DNA from: Escherichia coli
GTDB lineage: Bacteria; Pseudomonadota; Gammaproteobacteria; Enterobacterales; Enterobacteriaceae
Length of the DNA stretch: 34,186 nt
NCBI GenBank assembly: GCA_003321845.1
Contig: GCA_003321845.1_3917.1
Strand: one strand, 5' to 3'
In this document: positions 13,811 through 32,804 of the stretch, one piece after another
How the letters are laid out: every line of letters starts with the position of its first letter
How positions within the stretch are numbered: the first letter of the stretch is position 1
Notes under the pieces: generated by a model
Told to the model about the DNA's origin: nothing
The model's database searches: none
The model's input: only the letters and a program-made list of their open reading frames with translations
Made by a program: the position numbers and the translations under genes

Positions 13811-15427
13811 TCAACGTCTAAGCCCCTCATATGGGTTTCCTCTCACTAAGTCTGTGTGAGCACCCATTGATGGTGGCTTGAATAATTTAACTTCGTTAAG
13901 ACTGTTGAAAGCATCACTGGTAGCATCCACTTGGTCATCTTTAGTTTTACCATCACCACAAAAACCTTCAAGTTCTTGGAAGTAAGCTTCATTCCAACTA
14001 CCTCTCAAGACTTTTACAAGTCCAGCTTCAGAAGCAGCAGAAAACCCCGCAAATCGGGTAACTTTATCTTTATTTGTTGGTTTAGCTCTTGCTCGATAAC
14101 CTTTCTCGGCAAGTTTCCTGATGAGGGATGTTGCGTAGGATTTACCAGCAGCGCCTGGGTCTTGAGGGATAAAAATACCAGTTCGCTTACCGTCACTTTC
14201 AGCAGTCAAATTAATTTGTGTTTCGACTCCAGAGGGTCTATCTCTAAATCTTACTACATCAATGATATAATAGCAACCGTCTTTTTTAGATTTACCCATC
14301 TTAACACCTGCTGTCCAGTCTGGATTAGGGTTAATCTCAGATGGTAAAGTTGCTGCTAAGTCCCATGCTCTGACATCGAATACATCTTCTGGGAGTGAAT
14401 CAACAATTTCACACCATTGTCTTTGCCAATAGTTTGAACCTTCTGCACGAGCCTTCCAGTTACCGAAACGAAGTCTTGCAACGTTTACAGGAGTGTTGTT
14501 TTCCAACTTACCGCGATACTTTGGTTCTAAGAAGTCAAGAATTGGGTTATCATCAATCGTACCAGAGATGAATGTATATGTTTGAGGAATCTCAAGAGGA
14601 AACATTTCAAGAATCTTGTCTCTCTCCCAATCAGAAACCATAACACCATCATTCATTACATACCAACGAATACGACCACACTTTTCAGGGTCTGGGTAAC
14701 CTTCTTCATCTAAGAATGGTTCTACCCAATCGTAAATGAAGTGGTCTCTGTCTGGGTTCATAGAAATCTTCATGTATGAATCACCTTCAGCCCCAGAACG
14801 TAGACGAGTCTGTAGGTATGAAATCTGTGAAGCAGAGAAGTGTGTACCTTCGTCAAAGTAAATAGCTGAGTATTCAATACCCTGATGACCTTCAGCGTGC
14901 TTTTCAAGTTCTAGATAGGTAAACTTGATAGTTGCCCCAGAAGGGAATGTGATAGTCATCTTCTGCTCGTGAGGAACCCCACCAAACTTACCAAATAGTT
15001 TCTTTGCAGCAGGCCATAAACCACCTTGTAACTGTGTTGTATTTCGACGGAAATATACAGCATTATAATTAGGGTCGTCAATAAACCTTAAAGAGTCCAT
15101 TAACAATGCAGCAGTCTTACCAGCACCCGCAGCACCACCATAGAGAACCAAGTCAGCATTAGTATTTAAAAAGACCTCTTGAGAACCCGGCTGAGGGGCT
15201 ACATAGTTCTTATCAGTCATCAATTTGAAGATAAGTCTAACTTGGTCTGGTGTGTATCTTAATAAAGTCAGAATTTGAGTTGGAAGGAATTTAGAGGGGT
15301 CTTTACCGAATGATTTGATAATTTCTTTTACTTCATCAGAAAGCCCCAACTCTCCAGCTAGGACTTTCCTAACATCTTCCACTCGCTTCTGCTTAACAGC
15401 ATTTAAGTCCATTAAGCACCTCCGCAA
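13811..15427 (-). CDS. terL: Terminase large subunit
   Basis: 538 aa; Walker A P-loop LYGGAAGAGKTAAL near the N-terminus, acidic nuclease-like C-terminal half, directly upstream of the portal gene. Confidence 0.8.
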   Translation of the reverse strand: MRRCLMDLNAVKQKRVEDVRKVLAGELGLSDEVKEIIKSFGKDPSKFLPTQILTLLRYTPDQVRLIFKLMTDKNYVAPQPGSQEVFLNTNADLVLYGGAAGAGKTAALLMDSLRFIDDPNYNAVYFRRNTTQLQGGLWPAAKKLFGKFGGVPHEQKMTITFPSGATIKFTYLELEKHAEGHQGIEYSAIYFDEGTHFSASQISYLQTRLRSGAEGDSYMKISMNPDRDHFIYDWVEPFLDEEGYPDPEKCGRIRWYVMNDGVMVSDWERDKILEMFPLEIPQTYTFISGTIDDNPILDFLEPKYRGKLENNTPVNVARLRFGNWKARAEGSNYWQRQWCEIVDSLPEDVFDVRAWDLAATLPSEINPNPDWTAGVKMGKSKKDGCYYIIDVVRFRDRPSGVETQINLTAESDGKRTGIFIPQDPGAAGKSYATSLIRKLAEKGYRARAKPTNKDKVTRFAGFSAASEAGLVKVLRGSWNEAYFQELEGFCGDGKTKDDQVDATSDAFNSLNEVKLFKPPSMGAHTDLVRGNPYEGLRR

Positions 15428-15433
15428 ATAGAA

Positions 15434-15634
15434 TTATTCAGAGTCTGTAGCAGTCTCTTCTTTCTTAACTTCGAACTTTGCATCAACAGCATCAAGAAGT
15501 GCATCCATAGACGCTTCTTGAATATCAATACCTGTTGCTACAGATAATCTGTCTGCAATTGCCATGATAGTATTCTGCATAAATTCTAGCTTCTTGTTAG
15601 CTTCATAAAGTTCTTTATAAACGGTCTCGCTCAT
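15434..15634 (-). CDS. Small hypothetical protein upstream of terL
   Basis: 66-aa ORF with GGAG 8-9 nt upstream of the ATG; too small for a typical small terminase. Confidence 0.45.
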   Translation of the reverse strand: MSETVYKELYEANKKLEFMQNTIMAIADRLSVATGIDIQEASMDALLDAVDAKFEVKKEETATDSE

Positions 15635-15856: not shown

Positions 15857-15933
15857 TGGAGAATCCGAAGGGACTCGAACCCTTATAAACCTGTTTTGCA
15901 GACAGGCACATAGCCATTTCTGTCACGGATTCA
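15857..15933 (-). tRNA. tRNA-Cys (anticodon GCA)
   Basis: Hand-folded: encoded CCA, perfect 7-bp acceptor (gaatccg/cggattc), T-arm aaggg-actcgaa-ccctt, anticodon stem cctgt/acagg, loop reads CU-GCA-AA. Confidence 0.75.
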
Positions 15934-15936
15934 AAT

Positions 15937-16029
15937 TGGAGGAAGATACCAGACTTGAACTGGTACACCGATTTCTCAGCTACTGGCAGTTTAGCAAACT
16001 GCTCCCTTACCTTTTAGGGTTAATCTTCC
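15937..16029 (-). tRNA. tRNA-Ser (anticodon GCT), class II
   Basis: Encoded CCA, acceptor ggaagat/atcttcc, T-arm accag-acttgaa-ctggt, ~21-nt variable arm, anticodon stem gcagt/actgc, loop UU-GCU-AA. Confidence 0.75.
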
Positions 16030-16030
16030 A

Positions 16031-16765
16031 TTATTTCTGTAATGCGTTCTTCATTTCTGGTGTTGCAATAGTATCAATTACACCAGTTTTACAAGCATCA
16101 TCAAACCAGTCTGGTAAGATACCTGCTAAGAACCCATTGATATTCGTTTTAAGGTACTCTGCAATAAGAGCAGCTTCTTCTTCAATCATCTGCACAACTT
16201 CATCTGCATAAGCTGTAATCTTCGAAATACCTTCATTAATCTTACTAACAGCTTGGTTAGCTAAATCAGAAATAGTATCAAGACCTTTGTCAATAGCGTC
16301 TTGTAAGTCACTTAATACATCATTAACACCATCTAGAGCGCTGTTAATCGTATCCATAGCTTTTTGACCATACTCTGTAGCAACACCCATAATACCACTA
16401 AACGGTGTACAGCCAACTTGCTCTCCTGCTGCACCCATAACATTAGAATAACCTTTTGCTACCTGCATACGTGAGGAAAACTCATCAATGGACTTTTGAC
16501 CGTAATCCGTCAGCGTTTTGGTAGTTGATGTAGTGCTTGTCAGACTCGTTGTAAAGCTGTTAAGCAGAACTGTTGTAAGTCCAGCAGCAACAAGTTTATC
16601 TTTTATTGTAGGGTCTGTTACAGAGCTAATAGAGCTTACAAGTGATGTAGAGGCAGCTACGGTTCCACCGAGAACTGCTGCACCAGTAATAAGGGGATTA
16701 GAGAACCCTTTACCGGTTTTTAAGAGATTAAAAATCTCCTTACCTTGTTCTGTCATCTCTTTCAT
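16031..16765 (-). CDS. Hypothetical protein encoded inside the tRNA array (possible membrane or coiled-coil protein)
   Basis: ORF track gives 16031..16828 with a GTG start lying inside the tRNA-Phe anticodon arm. The first ATG (MKEMTEQ, at 16765) has AAGGTG 5 nt upstream and is the likelier start. Hydrophobic Gly/Ala segment followed by Ser/Thr-rich and acidic helical regions. Confidence 0.5.
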   Translation of the reverse strand: MKEMTEQGKEIFNLLKTGKGFSNPLITGAAVLGGTVAASTSLVSSISSVTDPTIKDKLVAAGLTTVLLNSFTTSLTSTTSTTKTLTDYGQKSIDEFSSRMQVAKGYSNVMGAAGEQVGCTPFSGIMGVATEYGQKAMDTINSALDGVNDVLSDLQDAIDKGLDTISDLANQAVSKINEGISKITAYADEVVQMIEEEAALIAEYLKTNINGFLAGILPDWFDDACKTGVIDTIATPEMKNALQK

Positions 16766-16781
16766 TAAGCACCTTTGAAAT

Positions 16782-16858
16782 TGGTAGTCCAGTGGGATTT
16801 GAACCCTCTTCTCATGTTTTTCAGACACGCGCTTTAACCATATAAGCTACTTGGACTA
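16782..16858 (-). tRNA. tRNA-Phe (anticodon GAA), slightly atypical
   Basis: Perfect acceptor tagtcca/tggacta, T-loop atttgaa with one T-stem mismatch, anticodon loop CU-GAA-AA. 3' CCA register is ambiguous. Confidence 0.55.
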
Positions 16859-16863
16859 TAAAT

Positions 16864-16939
16864 TGGGGTGACCTACGGGATTTGAACCCGTATAGACCAT
16901 GTTCACAGCATGGGTCATTACCATTTATGATAAGGCCAC
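16864..16939 (-). tRNA. tRNA-His (anticodon GTG)
   Basis: Encoded CCA, acceptor with one G-U pair, T-arm acggg-atttgaa-cccgt, anticodon stem ccatg/catgg, loop CU-GUG-AA. Confidence 0.7.
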
Positions 16940-16970
16940 ATTTAAGGACTCTCGTAAGAACCCTTAGAAG

Positions 16971-17046
16971 TGGCAGCGGCATAAGGATTTGAACCTTAAT
17001 AAGACAGCTTCAGAGACTGCTGCATTGCCAGTTATGCTATACCGCT
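16971..17046 (-). tRNA. tRNA-Gln (anticodon CTG)
   Basis: Encoded CCA, T-arm taagg-atttgaa-cctta, anticodon stem with two G-U pairs, loop CU-CUG-AA. Confidence 0.6.
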
Positions 17047-17051
17047 AAATT

Positions 17052-17130
17052 TGGTACTCCATATCGGATTCGAACCGATACATAACACAGATTTTAAGTC
17101 TGGCCTCTCTGCCAATTGGAGTAATGGAGC
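17052..17130 (-). tRNA. tRNA with anticodon TAA (formally Leu) but short variable arm
   Basis: Encoded CCA, discriminator A, T-arm atcgg-attcgaa-ccgat, anticodon loop CU-UAA-AA. Variable region only ~7 nt, i.e. class-I geometry, unusual for a Leu anticodon. Confidence 0.5.
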
Positions 17131-17131
17131 A

Positions 17132-17206
17132 TGGTACTCACTAAAGGACTTGAACCTTTTTCTTCATCTTGTAAGGGTGGTGTTTTACCATATAAACTAA
17201 GCGAGT
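17132..17206 (-). tRNA. tRNA-Val (anticodon TAC), tentative
   Basis: Encoded CCA, acceptor actcact/agcgagt with one G-U, T-arm aaagg-acttgaa-ccttt. Anticodon stem is imperfect; loop reads CU-UAC-AA. Confidence 0.5.
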
Positions 17207-17302
17207 GTGAAAGAGGTCTGAAGTTGTGCCGCTAACTCAACTCCGTGGAATTTGTTACGGTCTTCAGTTGACTCAAAGCGGTCTTTCACTTGACCTCTAA
17301 AT

Positions 17303-17378
17303 TGGTGCTCCCACAAGGATTCGAACCCTGATAAGTTGCTTACAAGGCAACCGTAATAGCCAATTATACGATAGGAGC
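17303..17378 (-). tRNA. tRNA-Thr (anticodon TGT)
   Basis: Encoded CCA, T-arm caagg-attcgaa-ccctg, perfect anticodon stem gttgc/gcaac, loop CU-UGU-AA. Confidence 0.75.
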
Positions 17379-17385
17379 ATTAATT

Positions 17386-17460
17386 TGGAGCATCCAGAGG
17401 GAATCGAACCCTCAACCTCAGTTTGGAAGACTGTAATTTTCCCGTTTAAACTATGGATGC
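17386..17460 (-). tRNA. tRNA-Gly (anticodon TCC)
   Basis: Encoded CCA, perfect acceptor gcatcca/tggatgc, T-arm gaggg-aatcgaa-ccctc, loop CU-UCC-AA. Confidence 0.7.
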
Positions 17461-17466
17461 ACTAAT

Positions 17467-17542
17467 TGGTGGAGTCACTGGGAATTGAACCCAGTTCCCA
17501 AGTTTGCAAAACTCGAATTTTAACCATATAAACTATGACCCC
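17467..17542 (-). tRNA. tRNA-Ala (anticodon TGC)
   Basis: Encoded CCA, acceptor ggagtca/tgacccc including a G-U pair, T-arm ctggg-aattgaa-cccag, loop UU-UGC-AA. Confidence 0.7.
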
Positions 17543-17548
17543 ATTGTT

Positions 17549-17624
17549 TGGTACAGGTGGAGGGAATTGAACCCATCGTCTTACTGATTAAGAGTCAGCC
17601 GCATAACCATTTTGCTACACCTGC
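17549..17624 (-). tRNA. tRNA-Lys (anticodon CTT)
   Basis: Encoded CCA, acceptor acaggtg/cacctgc, T-loop aattgaa with a 3-bp effective T-stem (same backbone as the Lys-TTT gene), loop CU-CUU-AA. Confidence 0.6.
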
Positions 17625-17631
17625 ATTAATT

Positions 17632-17709
17632 TGGTAGGAGACAAGGGATTCGAACCCTCAAACACCAACTTCTAAGGATGGTAGGTTTACCAATTACCGT
17701 CAATCTCCC
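17632..17709 (-). tRNA. tRNA with anticodon TAG (formally Leu) but short variable arm
   Basis: Encoded CCA, discriminator A, T-arm aaggg-attcgaa-ccctc, anticodon loop CU-UAG-AA with one A-A mismatch in the stem; class-I length (~78 nt). Confidence 0.5.
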
Positions 17710-17961
17710 ATTAAATCTTTTTAGAGAACTTCTAAGAACCTAAGCAACAAGGTTCCACAACAAGCTGTAATAACCTTAGAAGCCCTCTAAAAAGACCTAA
17801 TTTGGTCTTTGCATAGTCTTGTTTAATCCGGTGACTAGAACCTTTGGAGAGCTTGATATTATCTCTTCTCCGTGACACCTACTAGGTGCTTTATCAGTGT
17901 ACGACAATACACGAGGGATAAACCGAAAATGCGAGCAAGCATGGACGGTGTAAATCTTATT

Positions 17962-18052
17962 AGGCGGTAAGTAAAGGAGTCGAACCCTCACCGTATCTCT
18001 ACAGTGGCAACAGTTTTCAAGACTGTTTGGCTGCCATTAGCCGCTACCTACC
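17962..18052 (-). tRNA. tRNA-Ser (anticodon TGA), class II
   Basis: Perfect 6-bp anticodon stem aacagt/actgtt with loop CU-UGA-AA, ~20-nt variable arm, acceptor ggtaagt/acctacc, discriminator G. T-stem has two G-U pairs; CCA not fully encoded. Confidence 0.55.
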
Positions 18053-18065
18053 CCTAATAAGATTT

Positions 18066-18148
18066 TGGCATGGGACGGAGGAGTTGAACCCCTTTGAAAC
18101 GGTTTTGGAGGCCGTTGCTCATGCCTTAGAGTCTTAACATCGTCCCAT
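18066..18148 (-). tRNA. tRNA, probably Trp (anticodon CCA), atypical length
   Basis: Encoded CCA, perfect acceptor atgggac/gtcccat, T-loop agttgaa, anticodon hairpin acggc/accgt with loop CU-CCA-AA. About 7 extra nt in the D-arm region. Confidence 0.45.
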
Positions 18149-18291
18149 ACTGTAATTCGAAGCTTACCGTATTTTCACAACACTGTAAAGCCCCTTCTCA
18201 GATTATTTACATGTTCTGGAAAACATGAGATACAGACCACCTCCTTACACGGAGACCCGATAAGGTCGTCTAAGCAATCTGCTAACTAAAT

Positions 18292-18373
18292 TGGTCGAGG
18301 CGGCAGGACTCGAACCCGCATACTCCACTTACTCGGTTAACGGCGGTTTAGAAGACCGCTGAGATACGCCCCG
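18292..18373 (-). tRNA. tRNA-like element (anticodon-like loop TCT, Arg?) with degenerate D-arm
   Basis: Encoded CCA, acceptor cgaggcg/cgccccg, T-arm gcagg-actcgaa-cccgc, perfect hairpin gcggt-ttagaag-accgc giving CU-UCU-AA. Only ~7 nt where the D-arm should be and ~23 nt between the T-arm and that hairpin. Confidence 0.4.
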
Positions 18374-18667
18374 TAATTATCTTTAAAGACTCTCTGAGAA
18401 AGCCCTTAAAGATGCCCACATTATTAATCATACCGTGGGCTAGTACGCCAAATTCTTTGATGAGGGGTTGGAAGACCTCACTGGTGTTTAGCCTATCAAG
18501 CTACTGCCAGAAAAACATTGTCGTTTGCATTTATTTTAAATTTACAAAATAGACGCTACGCAACGAAAACTATTCAGAATATGTACAACAAATTTCCCCA
18601 CATTGTGTTACGTCTAACGCTCATGTCTTGGTGTTTGAATTATACATATGCTGAATCATTTTCAGTT

Positions 18668-18696
18668 ACTATAAAGTAGTCACATCTCAATGTCAA
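18668..18696 (-). promoter_or_regulatory. Candidate sigma70-type promoter internal to the tRNA array
   Basis: Minus strand reads TTGACA, 17 nt, TATAGT (plus-strand tgtcaa at ~18691 and actata at ~18668); it would drive the lower half of the array. Confidence 0.45.
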
Positions 18697-18711
18697 CAAC
18701 TTTATTGAAAT

Positions 18712-18785
18712 TGGTTGTAGGTGAGGGTATCGAACCCTCTTCTAACGGTTATCAGCCGTTTGCATTACCATTTATGCTAACCCAC
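18712..18785 (-). tRNA. tRNA-Ile (anticodon GAT)
   Basis: Encoded CCA, T-arm gaggg-tatcgaa-ccctc, perfect anticodon stem aacgg/ccgtt, loop CU-GAU-AA. Confidence 0.75.
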
Positions 18786-18788
18786 AAT

Positions 18789-18865
18789 TGGAGGTTCAGA
18801 TGGGAATCGAACCCACATCCATAGGGCTTATGAAACCCCTGCATTACCTTATCTGCGACTGAACC
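18789..18865 (-). tRNA. tRNA-Met (anticodon CAT; could be elongator Met or Ile2)
   Basis: Encoded CCA, perfect acceptor ggttcag/ctgaacc, T-arm atggg-aatcgaa-cccac, loop UU-CAU-AA. Confidence 0.6.
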
Positions 18866-18943
18866 ATAATAAGTACCCTAGTTAGAGAAACTATTGAGTG
18901 GGTGTTTCCAGCCGCGCAGGTGTTTCTCAGTTAAGGGTGAATT

Positions 18944-19019
18944 TGGTAGAAGTGGAGGGATTCGAACCCATCGCCTGTCAGATTAAAAGTCTGCCGCATC
19001 ACCATTCTGCTACACTTCC
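18944..19019 (-). tRNA. tRNA-Lys (anticodon TTT)
   Basis: Encoded CCA, acceptor agaagtg/cacttcc, T-loop attcgaa, anticodon stem caga/tctg, loop CU-UUU-AA. Confidence 0.65.
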
Positions 19020-19024
19020 ATTAA

Positions 19025-19167
19025 ATTATCTTTGTAGATAAGCTACCCAGACTTGCTTAAGGTCTGTAGCGATGTGCCTTTTTGGGTTTAAATCTAGAAT
19101 TTACCCTTTCACCCTTTGTGGTCGCATACTCACAGGTAAGCTTAATAACTTATCTACAAAGATAATT
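19025..19167. repeat. Perfect 18-bp inverted repeat (attatctttgtagataag / cttatctacaaagataat) enclosing ~107 nt
   Basis: Read directly from the sequence; arms at ~19025-19042 and ~19150-19167 within a tRNA-free stretch of the array. Predicts a long stem-closed structured RNA or a DNA cruciform. Confidence 0.6.
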
Positions 19168-19216
19168 ACCAGACCGTTGTTTATCATCTTAAGTGCTACC
19201 ATTACACCAACTCGAC

Positions 19217-19245
19217 ATCTGCCGAGTGAAGGAATCGAACCTTCG
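19217..19245 (-). other. Orphan tRNA T-arm-like hairpin (tRNA fragment or tRNA-like module)
   Basis: gaagg-aatcgaa-ccttc is a perfect T-arm mimic with an acceptor-like 7-mer beside it, but no matching 5' acceptor strand, D-arm or anticodon arm could be found. Confidence 0.3.
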
Positions 19246-19477
19246 CCTTTTCTTTACCGGAGAAATAGATTGTTTAAAGTTTGCTGTAAACGGTCTTCTG
19301 TAAATTTGTTGAGCCAGACCAAGTTTTAAATTTTTTCAAAATTAAATTGGCTTGAAAATTTCATACGTACTTGCTGAATTTGGTCTTCTGCTCCTTTAAA
19401 GAATACTCGTAAGAACTCTTTAAGGGAGGGGCTAAATAGCCCTCTCAAAACATCATTTTGAAATACTTATTATAATT

Positions 19478-19555
19478 TGGCGGTTACGAAGGGATTTGAA
19501 CCCTCATCATCTCCCGTGACAGGGGAGTATTTTAACCAGTTAAACTACATAACCT
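19478..19555 (-). tRNA. tRNA-Asp (anticodon GTC)
   Basis: Encoded CCA, T-arm aaggg-atttgaa-ccctc, perfect anticodon stem ctccc/gggag, loop CU-GUC-AC. Confidence 0.75.
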
Positions 19556-19560
19556 TTATT

Positions 19561-19648
19561 TGGTGTGCCGTGTAGGAGTCGAACCTACCGAGTCTCAATG
19601 ACAAGGGATTTACAGTCCCCACCGCTACCATCTACGGGATAACGACAC
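19561..19648 (-). tRNA. tRNA-Tyr (anticodon GTA), class II
   Basis: Encoded CCA, T-arm gtagg-agtcgaa-cctac, ~15-nt variable arm, anticodon stem aggga/tcccc, loop CU-GUA-AA. Confidence 0.7.
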
Positions 19649-19717
19649 ATTTAATTTCTATTCAGGCTAAGGACTTGCACCTTACAAATCGGTGAGCAAT
19701 CGCTTCTCTCCTAAATT

Positions 19718-19794
19718 TGGCGGTTAGTCAGGGATTCGAACCCTGTGCCATTCGCTTAACAGGCGACCGCACATACCTTATGTGCTTCCTAACC
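19718..19794 (-). tRNA. tRNA-Asn (anticodon GTT)
   Basis: Encoded CCA, T-arm caggg-attcgaa-ccctg, anticodon stem tcgc/gcga, loop CU-GUU-AA. Confidence 0.7.
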
Positions 19795-19871
19795 TTAATA
19801 CATTGCCAGACCGTGTTTTTTCTTTTATCCGCAAAAAGTATTTTGTTGCTGAATACGGTCTTCTGCAAAAT

Positions 19872-19948
19872 TGGAGGCGGGTGCAGGAGTCGAACCTACC
19901 GATACCATGCTAATGAGACATGTGAGACGCCCTTTCTCTATACCCGCA
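19872..19948 (-). tRNA. tRNA-Met (anticodon CAT), possible initiator
   Basis: Encoded CCA, T-arm gcagg-agtcgaa-cctac, D-stem gaga/tctc, anticodon loop with CAT. The 1:72 acceptor pair is mismatched, as in bacterial initiator tRNA. Confidence 0.55.
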
Positions 19949-20039
19949 ATTCTTAATGACCAGACCAAATCTCTTCTTTGTCCGATTTACCTTCAGATGA
20001 ATAAGATTAAGTTTGCTGCAATTGGTCTTCTGTCAAAAC

Positions 20040-20117
20040 TGGCGTTCCAGAAGGGATTTGAACCCTCAAATATCCACTTTGAAAGAGTGGCGACTTTACC
20101 GTTTTGTCTACTGGAAC
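20040..20117 (-). tRNA. tRNA-Glu (anticodon TTC)
   Basis: Encoded CCA, perfect acceptor gttccag/ctggaac, T-arm aaggg-atttgaa-ccctc, perfect anticodon stem ccact/agtgg, loop CU-UUC-AA. Confidence 0.75.
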
Positions 20118-20124
20118 ATTAATT

Positions 20125-20201
20125 TGGTCTCTGTTGGAGGACTTGAACCTCCGGCCTTACCGCCCCAAACGGAACGCTCTACCAAGCTGAGCTAAACAGA
20201 G
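20125..20201 (-). tRNA. tRNA-Pro (anticodon TGG)
   Basis: Encoded CCA, perfect acceptor ctctgtt/aacagag, perfect T-arm ggagg-acttgaa-cctcc, anticodon loop UU-UGG-GG. Confidence 0.65.
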
Positions 20202-28592: not shown

Positions 28593-29092
28593 TTTATGAA
28601 GAAAGATACAAAATAGACTATCAAGATACTCGTCATCACACCTCTTTGAGAGTAACCAAACCAAATGGGGATACCGGTATCATAGCACATTTTGGTGGTG
28701 ATTATTGGTACGGTACAGGTTGCTTTGAAGGCTACACTCAAGAATACTTGAAAGCTTTCTACAGAGACTTTACAAATGACTACAACAGGGTTGTTGACGA
28801 AAAGAATAAGTGCATTAAGCATGAACACCATGCCAGAGGTTGTTTAAGTACGGTAATGGTACTGGCATTTTTCCTAGCAACATTACTGGCAGTATCAGCA
28901 ATCAGTTCCATAGCTCAAGACTTAACCATTACACAGATTACTGCAAAGGTATATGATGTTTGGTACTTGTATGCTGTCCCTTTAGTTGGTATTATCATCG
29001 CACTAATGAGATTCAGAGTTCATAAGAAACGGCTTAAGGACTCTGAGGTTAAACTTGAAGAGGTAAGTAAAGAATGCAACCTACAATTATAG
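28559..29092 (+). CDS. Putative membrane protein (two predicted transmembrane helices)
   Basis: 177 aa; soluble N-terminal domain, then hydrophobic segments VMVLAFFLATLLAVSAISSIA and VWYLYAVPLVGIIIALMRF, then a charged tail. Confidence 0.55.
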   Translation: MEQTIERDWKMIYEERYKIDYQDTRHHTSLRVTKPNGDTGIIAHFGGDYWYGTGCFEGYTQEYLKAFYRDFTNDYNRVVDEKNKCIKHEHHARGCLSTVMVLAFFLATLLAVSAISSIAQDLTITQITAKVYDVWYLYAVPLVGIIIALMRFRVHKKRLKDSEVKLEEVSKECNLQL

Positions 29093-30323: not shown

Positions 30324-30885
30324 CGGTGTGATAGATATGAAAAAAGATAACTTAAAAGAAGTTGAAGGTAACTATCTAGTCCTTGACTGGAATGATATTC
30401 GGGAAGGACTCTCCGAAGAAAATTTTGACTGGTTCCAACAAATTATCTTTGCAGTACGGCATAACAGAGAAGTTGAAAATGGTAAAGAGCCATTAGAAGG
30501 AATCTTTGTAGAAAGGTCTTATCCGTTCTATGAAGACACTTTGCAGAAAGTTAAGATGTACTTTAGACAGAAGAACCGTAAAGTGGTCACTATGGTCTCT
30601 CTTGGTGGACAGAGTATGTCTGTGATGGAAGATATCAACCCTAAGAGACCGAGTAAAGGTGTTTGTATAAAAATCACAGGTCATGAAGAGTATATCTCAG
30701 TGGATGACTTTAGAGCATTCTGTAGTGGTTCTTGTGTCTTTAATGGTTTTCACTATGATATCCGAGTTTACCCAATCAAGGGAGATGATATTATGATGCA
30801 GGTATTTGATAACAATAATGGGTTTACTCATTTTTATCAGACAACCAAGTCATCATTAAAAACAGTTCTGGAAACACTGATTTAA
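30292..30885 (+). CDS. Hypothetical protein (start uncertain; alternative ATG near 30337)
   Basis: 197-aa ORF, last gene of the plus-strand operon; overlaps the upstream gene by ~32 nt. Confidence 0.5.
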   Translation: MQYQLTKFYNNGVIDMKKDNLKEVEGNYLVLDWNDIREGLSEENFDWFQQIIFAVRHNREVENGKEPLEGIFVERSYPFYEDTLQKVKMYFRQKNRKVVTMVSLGGQSMSVMEDINPKRPSKGVCIKITGHEEYISVDDFRAFCSGSCVFNGFHYDIRVYPIKGDDIMMQVFDNNNGFTHFYQTTKSSLKTVLETLI

Positions 30886-30895
30886 AATATCTTAA

Positions 30896-30925
30896 GAGCC
30901 TCCTTAATCGGGGGGCTTTTTAATT
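30896..30925 (+). terminator. Intrinsic terminator at the end of the plus-strand operon
   Basis: agcctcc-ttaatcg-gggggct stem-loop followed by tttttaattttt. Confidence 0.55.
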
Positions 30926-32490
30926 TTTATAAAATTTTATCGGTTGTCCCAACCTCTGGGTCACCATCATATGTGAATAAAATATCTACCCTTCTTAACA
31001 ACCTTCTTAATCTTACTCTCTATATAGTTATATAGTACTATATAGTATCTTAGTATCTATCTAGTGGTCTTAATAGCCCCTCTGTATAGCCCTTCTAAAC
31101 ACTCTTCTAACAAGCCTTCTTAACAACCTATACAATCACCTTAACCATTCCTCTACACACTCTTAGAAGCTCCTATACACCTCTTAATCTCTAGGTAAGC
31201 TATGATACCCTCTATAGGTGTTCACTAGGGAATACTAAGCCTCTATATAGACTGTTTTAACAAACTTAACAGGAATATCTTTACAGACCTTATCTCACAA
31301 GGTCTAACACGGTACTAACAAGGTATCTTATAAGCCTGTTTATGCCTGTATTTTTAAAAGACTGTCTAGGTAATTATTCAGAATTTTAAAATTTTTATAA
31401 AATAGGACTATCAAGTCATTTTTTAGGGTCTTTGAAGGAACTGAAAAATATCTGTAGAGTTGATTCGGTAGAATCTACCTCATGATGTATATCTGCTTGG
31501 TAGCCCTTAACATCCCTGTAACATCCCCTTTGCAGAATTTTAAAATATCCTTAACAATCTCTTAACAACTCTCTCAACCTCTTAACATCTCTTCAGAGGT
31601 CTTAACAGACTCTTAACAGAACTAACAAGGCTGTAACAAGTTCTTAACAGTCGATACATGGTCTTTACAGAAGCTTAACAGATGACTAACAAGAACTAAC
31701 AAGTTAATTTTTAAGAGTTATTTTGTTAAGATAATTAACAAGTTCCTAACAAGTGTTTAATCTTTTTAACAAGCTGTTAACACGGTCACTATCTCTTTCT
31801 TATCGTTCCCTTTCCCCTCTTAGTGATTCTCTAAACATACCTCTTAAAAGCTCTCTATAGCTCCTTGTAAGCTCTTTTAAGCCTCTTCCTAGTAATTACA
31901 CCCCAACTGTACAGATACCTTTTTATAGGGCTTTACAGAAGCTTTAAAGGCTATGTCAAAGACTCTTACAAGGCTTTTACGTGGTCTTAACAGAGATTTA
32001 ACAAGGGGCTAACAAGTTGCTAACAAGTGCCTTAAAAGCATAACTATGTAGGGATTGTTAAGAAATTGTTAAGAAAATGTTAAGGGGGCTAGCATTTACG
32101 TAACTTTATAGCCTCTTTCACGTAACTTTGAAGTAACTTTATAGCCCCTAAAACATACTTTTAAGACACAAACAAGCCCTTTTTAGATATTCACAAGATA
32201 ACTAACGAGATGATAAAGCTTACACCCTTATAAGATTCTTTTAAGGCTGTAGGAAGCTTTATAAAGAGCTTTTAAGGGTGAGTTAATGCAATCCCTTAAG
32301 TTAGGTTGATAAGGCTGTTATAGAACTTTATAGAGCGTTTAAACGGTTGCCCTTCCCTTTCGGGTTATGGGCTTATATTTAAGTTGATTTGATAAGAGTT
32401 TATAGAGTAGACTATAGAGTTATTGCTTTTAAGGTCTGGTAAGATTCTAGGGAGGAAAGGAAAGGGATTGTATAGAGGCTATTACATAGA
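30926..32490. repeat. ORF-free 1.6-kb iteron region (putative replication origin or regulatory hub)
   Basis: No ORF of 60 aa or more on either strand. Dozens of CTTAACA(A/G) / CTAACAAG repeats at ~10-12-bp phasing (densest ~31540-31790 and ~31980-32030), inverted copies TTGTTAAG x3 (~32055-32085), TATATAGT x3 (~31020-31050) and GTAACTTTA x3 (~32100-32150). Confidence 0.7.
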
Positions 32491-32491
32491 C

Positions 32492-32520
32492 GTAAAAAAG
32501 CCCCTATGAGAAGGAGCTTT
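32492..32520 (-). terminator. Intrinsic terminator downstream of the minus-strand small-gene cluster
   Basis: Minus strand reads AGCUCC-UUCUCAUA-GGGGCU followed by a U6 run (plus-strand aaaaaa at ~32494-32499). A second perfect hairpin ggggc-tattt-gcccc lies at ~32531-32545. Confidence 0.5.
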
Positions 32521-32555
32521 AAAGGTATCTGGGGCTATTTGCCCCGTTGCGTCGA

Positions 32556-32804
32556 TTAGTTGTAACCTTGTTTATTGTAGTACAGGGAGACAATCAAGTC
32601 ACCCCAGTAATGATAGTGATGCTCGTCGTTTAATGCCTCCTTTACAGCGTCTTTCCAGAAGTCATCAGTAGGGTTATAATCTGGGATAACTTGCTTGATA
32701 ACTGTCTTCACTAATGAAAAGCATTCATCAGTTCCACCGATATCAAATTTAACGTCCAGAGTATAACAGCCATAAGCATTGACAGTTGCGCGGATAGTTG
32801 CCAT
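32556..32804 (-). CDS. Hypothetical protein
   Basis: 82-aa ORF immediately preceded by the conserved leader box. Confidence 0.55.
   Translation of the reverse strand: MATIRATVNAYGCYTLDVKFDIGGTDECFSLVKTVIKQVIPDYNPTDDFWKDAVKEALNDEHHYHYWGDLIVSLYYNKQGYN

Follow-up and report, generated by a model that had tools for sequence, protein, structure and literature searches.

The junction region of phages T7 and T3 comprises a 160-bp terminal repeat, nearby arrays of short repeats, and pac sites, with gp18/gp19 as the terminase. In phages lambda (R sites of cosB) and SPP1 (pacL/pacR), 3–7 sites are spread over 100–200 bp, and packaging involves cohesive ends or follows the headful mode. Direct terminal repeats (DTRs) have a role in replication, concatenation, and packaging (10.1101/2024.10.10.617714). 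Published DTRs from the genera Felixounavirus and Kolesnikvirus are described by their lengths only (PMC4837284, PMC8303462, PMC8928762), and the reports contain neither phased TTAACA arrays, mirror-image boundaries, and cut-site boxes nor a small terminase. Here, we analyze a gene-free region (30926–32490) within a 34,186-nt stretch of DNA (the window; contig GCA_003321845.1_3917.1), which belongs to a Felixounavirus (Felix O1-like myovirus, subfamily Ounavirinae). The initial annotation of this region had pointed to phased TTAACA-type repeats in both orientations and had suggested the control hub of an uncharacterized replication or regulatory system. The DTR, which occupies the core of this region, has however already been documented for the genus (PMC4837284, PMC8303462). 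We consider it reasonably likely that the gene-free region is the concatemer junction of the phage, that the phased array positions the terminase, and that a protein with a DUF5681 domain is the most likely binder. The repeats are more likely to be packaging signals than a replication origin.

The direct terminal repeat and its boundaries

Judging from homology to sequenced relatives, the 591-bp core of the gene-free region (31499–32089) is the DTR of the virion DNA. At both ends of the record of phage Pr103Blw, 581 bp are annotated as a "short direct terminal repeat", which was derived with PhageTerm (PMC8303462) and which maps exactly to this core upon BLAST comparison. The same applies to the exact 613-bp duplication at the two ends of the SPJ41 record. 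By homology to these two phages, identical sequence is thus present at both virion ends. Several other records are delimited at the same places: those of I14.1, E9, Ro111lw, and NBEco005 end at 31499 and that of EcSzw_1 starts at 31500, while those of SeKF_63, GE_vB_7A, and ECOH1 start at about 32083–32089. For UAB_Phi87, a DTR of 608 bp was shown by Bal31 digestion and run-off sequencing (sequencing drop-off), and the large terminase subunits (TerL) of Felix O1-like phages cluster in the DTR group (PMC4837284). The DTR is present in a single copy in the window because the assembly shows the concatemer-junction form.

The left boundary follows the invariant sequence TGTATATCTGCTT (CTGCTT|), and the right boundary is located between GGC and TA(G/A)C. 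These two boundary motifs, and nothing else, were applied to other genomes in order to predict the length of the DTR. The predictions agree with the record annotation for Pr103Blw (581 bp) and with the exact duplication at the record ends for SPJ41 (613 bp). For UAB_Phi87 (earlier record version), 614 bp were predicted and 608 bp have been reported (PMC4837284); its record JN225449.1 starts in the transfer RNA (tRNA) cluster and not at a terminus, and the boundary motifs were used instead. For phages phiEa21-4 and phi63_307 from the distant Erwinia/Hafnia genus Kolesnikvirus, the prediction is 439 bp, which is the length determined by PhageTerm for the near-identical Hafnia phage SPARTY (PMC8928762). 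A length of ~440 bp had been estimated from the phiEa21-4 sequence before the SPARTY paper was found. The true genome ends can thus be annotated from sequence alone via the two boundary boxes, which reproduced three independently determined DTR lengths.

The SPARTY record has an exact terminal duplication of 439 bp, which starts right after TGTATATCTGCTT (CTGCTT) and ends with ...GTGGC|TAAC. Its termini are the same aligned nucleotides as the boundaries in the window, and otherwise the junctions from Felixounavirus and Kolesnikvirus align over only ~100 bp at ~71% identity. The match of the ends indicates that the cut positions are conserved across genera. In both genera, the termini are fixed, non-permuted, and located at conserved sequences.

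Multiple short phased motifs are found beside the cut sites, as is typical for pac or cosB sites. Array A (see Table 1 for all features) starts 8 bp inside the left terminus, and the inverted array D comes to within 6 bp of the right terminus. The sequence is 5'-GGTAGCCCTTAACAT at the left virion end and, when read from the bottom strand, 5'-GCCCCCTTAACAT at the right one, both having the form 5'-G..CCC-TTAACAT. These mirror-image ends account for the opposed orientation of the motifs which had been noticed in the initial annotation.

Just to the left of the DTR boundary (31459–31483), a 24-bp palindromic sequence (GTTGATTCGGTAGAATCTACCTCAT) is inserted, which looks like a small mobile or hairpin element. 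Among 10 aligned relatives, the insertion is found only here and in SPJ41, and there is no second copy in the window. Elements of the GATTCGATAGAATC type are inserted elsewhere in the junction region of phages fjerdesal, mio, Michonne, and SUSP1. In the majority of the more than 250 Ounavirinae records, which are opened at arbitrary points, the junction region is either unannotated or carries spurious small coding sequences for a "hypothetical protein" (e.g., Phi87_32–34 in UAB_Phi87 and gp118 in Michonne). The region is also contained, at 91% identity, in the 147-kb record of "Staphylococcus phage SA1", which suggests that this is a chimeric or contaminated deposit.

Copy number, phasing, and conservation of the TTAACA motif

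In the forward orientation, the 1565-bp region has 26 copies of YTAACA, compared to 2.0 ± 1.3 (maximum 9) in 1000 dinucleotide-preserving shuffles of the region. For the extended motif YTAACAR, 22 copies contrast with 1.1 ± 1.1 (maximum 5) in the shuffles, so that the z-score is about 18–20 for both versions. The density of YTAACA is 16.6 per kb in this region and 1.0 per kb in the remaining 32.6 kb of the window. In addition, there are five inverted copies (TGTTAR, at 31724, 31775, 32056, 32067, and 32078), the last three of which form a block with 11-bp tandem spacing. Two other short sequences occur in triplicate, TATATAGT in the left flank (0.10 copies expected; none elsewhere in the window) and GTAACTTT in the right flank (32100, 32122, and 32133).

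The spacing is exactly 11 bp for 12 of the 27 nearest-neighbor pairs, the others being mostly separated by 9, 10, 20, or 31 bp. Pairwise distances of up to 130 bp are phase-coherent at 10.25–10.5 bp, with a coherence of 0.62. This exceeds the maximum obtained by random placement (0.485) and that obtained when positions were jittered by ±5 bp with preservation of clustering (0.469; none of 2000 reached the observed value). The motif copies are thus located on one face of the helix. The initial annotation had listed about 20 copies at roughly helical-turn spacing, a block of inverted copies, and the repeat triplets, all of which proved to be real.

The DTR harbors 24 of the 31 motif copies (19 forward and all five inverted), and all others are found in its left flank. 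In Pr103Blw, the terminal kilobases are the only part of the genome where the motif accumulates, with up to 25 copies per kb compared to a median of 1. The two flanks are mirror-like as well, with CTCTATA on the left and its reverse complement TATAGAG on the right. The local GC skew across the region is −0.25, −0.18, and +0.17, and this switch of sign is due to the orientation of the motifs. A further block (31800–31990), which includes a second array with a different repeat unit, has a periodicity power of 7.6 at 11.2 bp, compared to a window median of ~2.

Conservation was assessed with an alignment of 10 phages from three genera. Within the DTR, motif columns are 0.93 identical, while the value is 0.73 for the other columns (against Suspvirus/Mooglevirus). 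The best conserved 50-bp bin of the region starts at 31486 (0.96). The TGTATATCTGCTT core of the left box is invariant in all 10 phages and is also kept in phiEa21-4 and SPARTY. Conservation of the left flank extends across Felixounavirus, Suspvirus, and Mooglevirus. Insertions and deletions in the alignment are in units of 11 bp, and DTR lengths show steps of roughly the same size (569/570, 579/581, 591, and 613/614 bp). The layout is the same in the Kolesnikvirus phiEa21-4: TTAACA occurs 17 times, the right boundary has an inverted block (TGTTAA), and the left box is shared. Thus, that part of the initial interpretation which proposed a cis-acting, phased array of binding sites with opposed orientations is supported: the cores are conserved while the spacers drift, and the architecture recurs in Kolesnikvirus.

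The right DTR flank of phiEa21-4 (2060–2370) has 9–12 copies of (C)TTAGAAG(R), which replace the CTTTWAAG/TATAGAG motifs of Felixounavirus. Between the two genera, the flank motif is thus swapped while the TTAACA array in the DTR is kept.

Table 1. Position of the junction region elements and of the terminase-related genes in the window
Feature	Position	Strand	Remarks
Terminase large subunit (TerL)	13811–15427	−	phrog_979, E = 8e−234; enzyme expected to make both cuts
123-aa DUF5681 protein	21864–22235	−	PF18932, E = 2.3e−14; candidate small terminase and candidate array binder
Rho-independent terminator	30894–30920	+	11-pair stem and T-run; ends the rightward operon; the corresponding site of AYO145A is also annotated as a terminator
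Left flank of the DTR	30926–31498		In the virion: unique sequence just inside the right-end repeat; 7 forward YTAACA, CTCTATA/TATATAGT repeats, AT-rich block 31372–31411
TATATAGT triplet	31021–31046	+	Copies start at 31021, 31029, and 31039
Conserved box GATGTATATCTGCTT	31484–31498		Putative left cut-site/recognition box; adjoins the left DTR boundary on the outside
Direct terminal repeat (591 bp)	31499–32089		From BLAST with the DTRs of relatives
Array A	31507–31702	+	13 forward (Y/G)TAACA; cores invariant and spacers variable in the alignment
AT-rich spacer (85% AT)	31703–31734		Between arrays A and B; conserved; one inverted copy
Array B	31735–31783	+	4 forward copies, the last in the palindrome TGTTAACA
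Second phased array	31843–31892	+	CTNNNNAG-type units CTTAAAAG, CTCTATAG, CTTGTAAG, CTTTTAAG, CTTCCTAG; 10–11 bp spacing, read from sequence
Array C	31987–32027	+	4 forward copies, perfect 11-bp tandem
16-bp core AAGCATAACTATGTAG	32036–32051		Identical in 10 of 10 aligned phages; convergence point of arrays C (forward) and D (inverted)
Array D	32055–32084	−	3 inverted copies (TTGTTAAG, TTGTTAAG, ATGTTAAG), 11-bp tandem; stops 6 bp short of the right terminus
Right flank of the DTR	32090–32490		In the virion: unique sequence just inside the left-end repeat; no TTAACA; GTAACTTT (3 copies), CTTTWAAG, TATAGAG (4 copies)
Nearly invariant block GGTTGCCCTTCCCTTTCGGGTTATGGGCTTATATT	32344–32380	+	Nested hairpin, then a T-rich run
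Terminator of the leftward small-gene operon	32487–32515 (about)	−	Hairpin and T-run, read from sequence; annotated at the homologous place in AYO145A

The nearly invariant block in the right flank has a core (TTGCCCTTCCCTTTCGGGTTATGGGCTT) which is identical in all 10 phages from the three genera. Its folding energy is unremarkable (z = −1.0), and it may represent either a terminator that faces out of the DTR or a protein site. Single-strand DNA folds for this block, for both boundaries, and for the 24-bp insertion were in no case better than those of shuffled sequences.

A proposed packaging junction and competing explanations

In the proposed packaging junction, the central 591 bp are the short exact repeat at both ends of the packaged DNA, and the flanks adjoin the two cut sites. 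The phased TTAACA copies would be cis-acting sites for a phage protein which, by coating or wrapping one face of the DNA, positions the terminase. Cuts would be made at two fixed points, on the left after CTGCTT and on the right after GGC (before TAGC). Because of the inverted copies, the two boundaries are mirror images of each other, and thus a single protein could mark both. As in other phages with short DTRs, this might be followed by duplication of the DTR or by the sacrifice of alternate genomes. Binding would most likely be by the small subunit of the terminase, and we propose the DUF5681 protein for this role. The analysis shows where the DTR is located, that the positions of its boundaries are conserved, and that the motif is enriched, phased, and conserved, while the binding of the terminase to the array, the role of DUF5681 as its small subunit, and the mode of repeat duplication are inferred.

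No small terminase was named among the window proteins by any of the protein-family libraries. The DUF5681 gene is the first one of the leftward operon that also contains the gene for TerL. In three contig contexts from unrelated phages or prophages, genes for distant DUF5681 homologs are located directly upstream of TerL genes and overlap these. Small terminases are canonically encoded at this position, which makes the protein a candidate for this function. The DUF5681 family is characterized by an invariant basic N-terminal arm (FKKGQSGNPxGRPKGSRN), the GRP core of which presumably resembles an AT-hook. The gene is a core gene with a distribution across phages that matches that of the DTR region, and its annotation is invariably "hypothetical" or "DUF5681". 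Pfam and PHROGs list the family as having no known function, and the protein has neither an NCBIfam match nor a sequence match in PDB. An open reading frame (ORF) of 66 aa located directly upstream of the TerL gene (15434–15634) was also considered but set aside; it has no informative family assignment, and its product is acidic rather than basic. The text of the PhageMaP preprint on Felixounavirus Bas63 contains no data on the junction region or on the DUF5681 gene.

Several observations weigh against the proposed packaging junction. The nearest TTAACA motifs are 8 and 6 nt from the two cut sites, so that the mirror symmetry is imperfect. For mapping of the DTR, relatives with 87%–92% identity over this stretch were used and not reads from this phage. 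The DUF5681 gene is 6.4 kb away from that for TerL, with a Ro60-like gene and the tRNA cluster between them. In the unrelated phage contigs, there are no TTAACA arrays within 5 kb of the DUF5681 and TerL genes; therefore, nothing ties the family to the motif, and the link between protein and motif is hypothetical. When modeled with AlphaFold (pLDDT 72), the DUF5681 protein consists of a basic arm and a helical hairpin, for which Foldseek returned no match in PDB with E < 3. Finally, features which resemble an origin are present, namely iterons flanking conserved AT-rich blocks.

Phased iterons with opposed orientation had led the initial annotation to consider a replication origin or a partition site, a reading which is probably wrong with respect to the origin. 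As an iteron-type origin, the array would (possibly in addition to another function) allow a phage initiator to bind the phased TTAACA copies and to melt one of the AT-rich blocks (31372–31411, 88% AT; 31705–31744, 85% AT, the second one being conserved), and replication would start at or next to the DTR. Phased direct repeats indeed flank these blocks, the array is conserved across the subfamily, and in T7-type phages, terminal repeats are involved in replication and in the formation of concatemers (10.1101/2024.10.10.617714). Also, our literature search yielded no other origin for Felixounavirus, as publications that name both the genus and "origin of replication" are silent on the subject. 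We nevertheless consider an origin unlikely. Family-library scans revealed no initiator-like family among the 30 window proteins, and for the rest of the genome, the annotation of a relative lists primase/helicase, polymerase, and ligase but no initiator. Searches with the IHF, DnaA, and Chi consensus sequences returned essentially nothing, with a single weak DnaA-box-like match (30972) and no IHF consensus. The GC-skew check proposed in the initial annotation, for which the complete genome of Pr103Blw was used, also argues against an origin: along all 88 kb, the sign of the skew follows the coding strand, and a replication-associated switch in strand composition is not seen there. The junction is at the maximum rather than at the minimum of the cumulative skew, and it peaks there because two operons converge. 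Moreover, the densest part of the array is the DTR, the inverted block is at one of the two cut sites, and the limits of the array coincide with the packaging cuts, which an origin would not require. A partition site (parS or centromere-like) was rejected because ParA/ParB-type families are found neither by library scans of the window nor in the annotation of the relative, and because Felixounavirus is described as lytic (PMC3185647, PMC8303462).

Other explanations retain the array but assign it a different role, or none. It might bind an architectural protein from phage or host which is distinct from the terminase and which protects the ends from exonuclease, mediates synapsis for concatemer recombination, or controls ejection. 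Such a protein would fit with the concentration of the motif at both physical ends, with the one-sided coating of the helix that is implied by the phasing, and with the lack of a RecBCD inhibitor in Felixounavirus Bas63 (PhageMaP preprint). This is improbable in our view, given that no candidate emerged (the flanking genes all belong to PHROGs of unknown function) and that the mirror layout at the cut sites is more simply explained by the complex which makes the cuts. That the repeats have no sequence-specific function, being 11-bp units made by slippage and tolerated where end duplication keeps the region non-coding, is very unlikely. While indels in 11-bp units and the varying copy number between phages would be expected from slippage, the cores are better conserved than the spacers (0.93 vs. 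0.73), the hexamer and its layout persist in Kolesnikvirus where the remaining region hardly aligns, and non-tandem copies keep the helical phase. Even less probable is that the region encodes one or several structured non-coding RNAs, for which 1.6 kb without ORFs and the nearly invariant hairpin block could be quoted. A search of 30800–32600 against Rfam returned only a chance match on a flanking terminator (E = 0.12), transcription from outside is blocked by the flanking terminators, all sites that resemble promoters are weak (9 of 12 matches), the conservation pattern is that of a DNA motif, and local folds are no better than those of shuffles. A promoter cluster was rejected as well, since a sigma-70 scan gave 13 weak sites, none with a good −10 element; they are found mostly because TTAACA differs from TTGACA by one mismatch.

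We also considered, as a quite unlikely extension of the packaging junction, that the DTR is a dual-purpose platform. A subfamily-specific protein, DUF5681 being one candidate, would polymerize on the ~30 phased TTAACA sites, fix both cuts, and start replication or recombination from the ends. The invariant, GRP-containing basic arm of DUF5681 might then read the minor groove of TTAA. If this were true, the DTR of a myovirus would work somewhat like the p6-coated ends of phi29, and DUF5681 would be a previously unrecognized family of small terminases.

Genome context and relation to known systems

When 30900–32520 was compared to phage records by megablast, 257 records were matched, 203 of them with at least 80% query coverage and 77%–94% identity. 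The matching records are almost all from Felixounavirus, Suspvirus, or Mooglevirus (Ounavirinae). The minus strand of the window codes for the terminase large subunit, portal, protease, major head protein, tail sheath, and tape measure, and 22 tRNA genes are clustered at 15857–20201. The rightward operon, which codes for small proteins of unknown function (members are in PHROGs without known function), stops at 30885, so that the gene-free region is located between convergent transcription units. As stated in the initial annotation, there is no ORF of 60 aa or more on either strand (the longest between 30886 and 32555 has 35 aa), and terminators are found on both sides. As these point inward, the region is not a promoter region and is shielded from transcription.

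The tRNA cluster is adjoined by the gene for a 471-aa "RNA-binding protein" (phrog_850; 20367–21782, minus strand). According to the PhageMaP preprint, gp130 of Bas63, which is encoded directly upstream of the tRNA stretch, is Ro60-like and counters the ppl defense system. An 11-bp periodic composition signal which is as strong as that in the junction region (power 6.8) was detected in coding sequence (28001–28600). It falls in an ORF of 194 aa (27793–28377), matched by phrog_5380 in two stretches, and could come from an internal protein repeat. The sequence GATC is absent from both strands of the whole window (1–34186), while 97 ± 9 copies are expected from dinucleotide-preserving shuffles, which amounts to total avoidance of this Dam/MboI-type site.

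Felix O1-like phages are widely used for typing and biocontrol of Salmonella and Escherichia coli. The junction provides a defined cis element for packaging and transduction vectors and for synthetic rebooting of such phages, and with the DUF5681 protein, there is a candidate for the missing small terminase that can be tested. To read the region as an origin is attractive but probably wrong, and our analysis corrects this view. In the literature which we searched, we did not find a description of the phased array, of the mirror-image and positionally conserved boundaries, or of DUF5681 as a small-terminase candidate.

The closest counterparts are the DTRs of Felixounavirus and Kolesnikvirus themselves (UAB_Phi87, 608 bp; Pr103Blw, 581 bp; SPARTY, 439 bp), which represent the same element with the same boundaries and flanking genes, the DTR being 87%–92% identical. 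The locus resembles the T7/T3 junction in that a short exact DTR is present once per junction, with fixed cuts at both boundaries and with arrays of short repeats at the repeat region. Unlike in T7/T3, most of the repeats are inside rather than beside the DTR, which is about four times longer, and there is no sequence similarity. As the myovirus analyzed here does not have its own RNA polymerase, the transcription-coupled steps of end formation in T7 need not apply. With iteron origins (lambda ori, plasmid oriV), it shares direct, helically phased repeats beside AT-rich stretches, but a cognate initiator gene, sites for DnaA or IHF, and a replication-specific skew were not found, and the array is delimited by packaging cuts. 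The arrangement is probably analogous to cosB and pacL/pacR, with several short motif copies on one helical face beside a cut site, some of them inverted. It differs from these in scale, having ~31 sites over 1.1 kb and two cuts that are 591 bp apart, with putative binding by the terminase.

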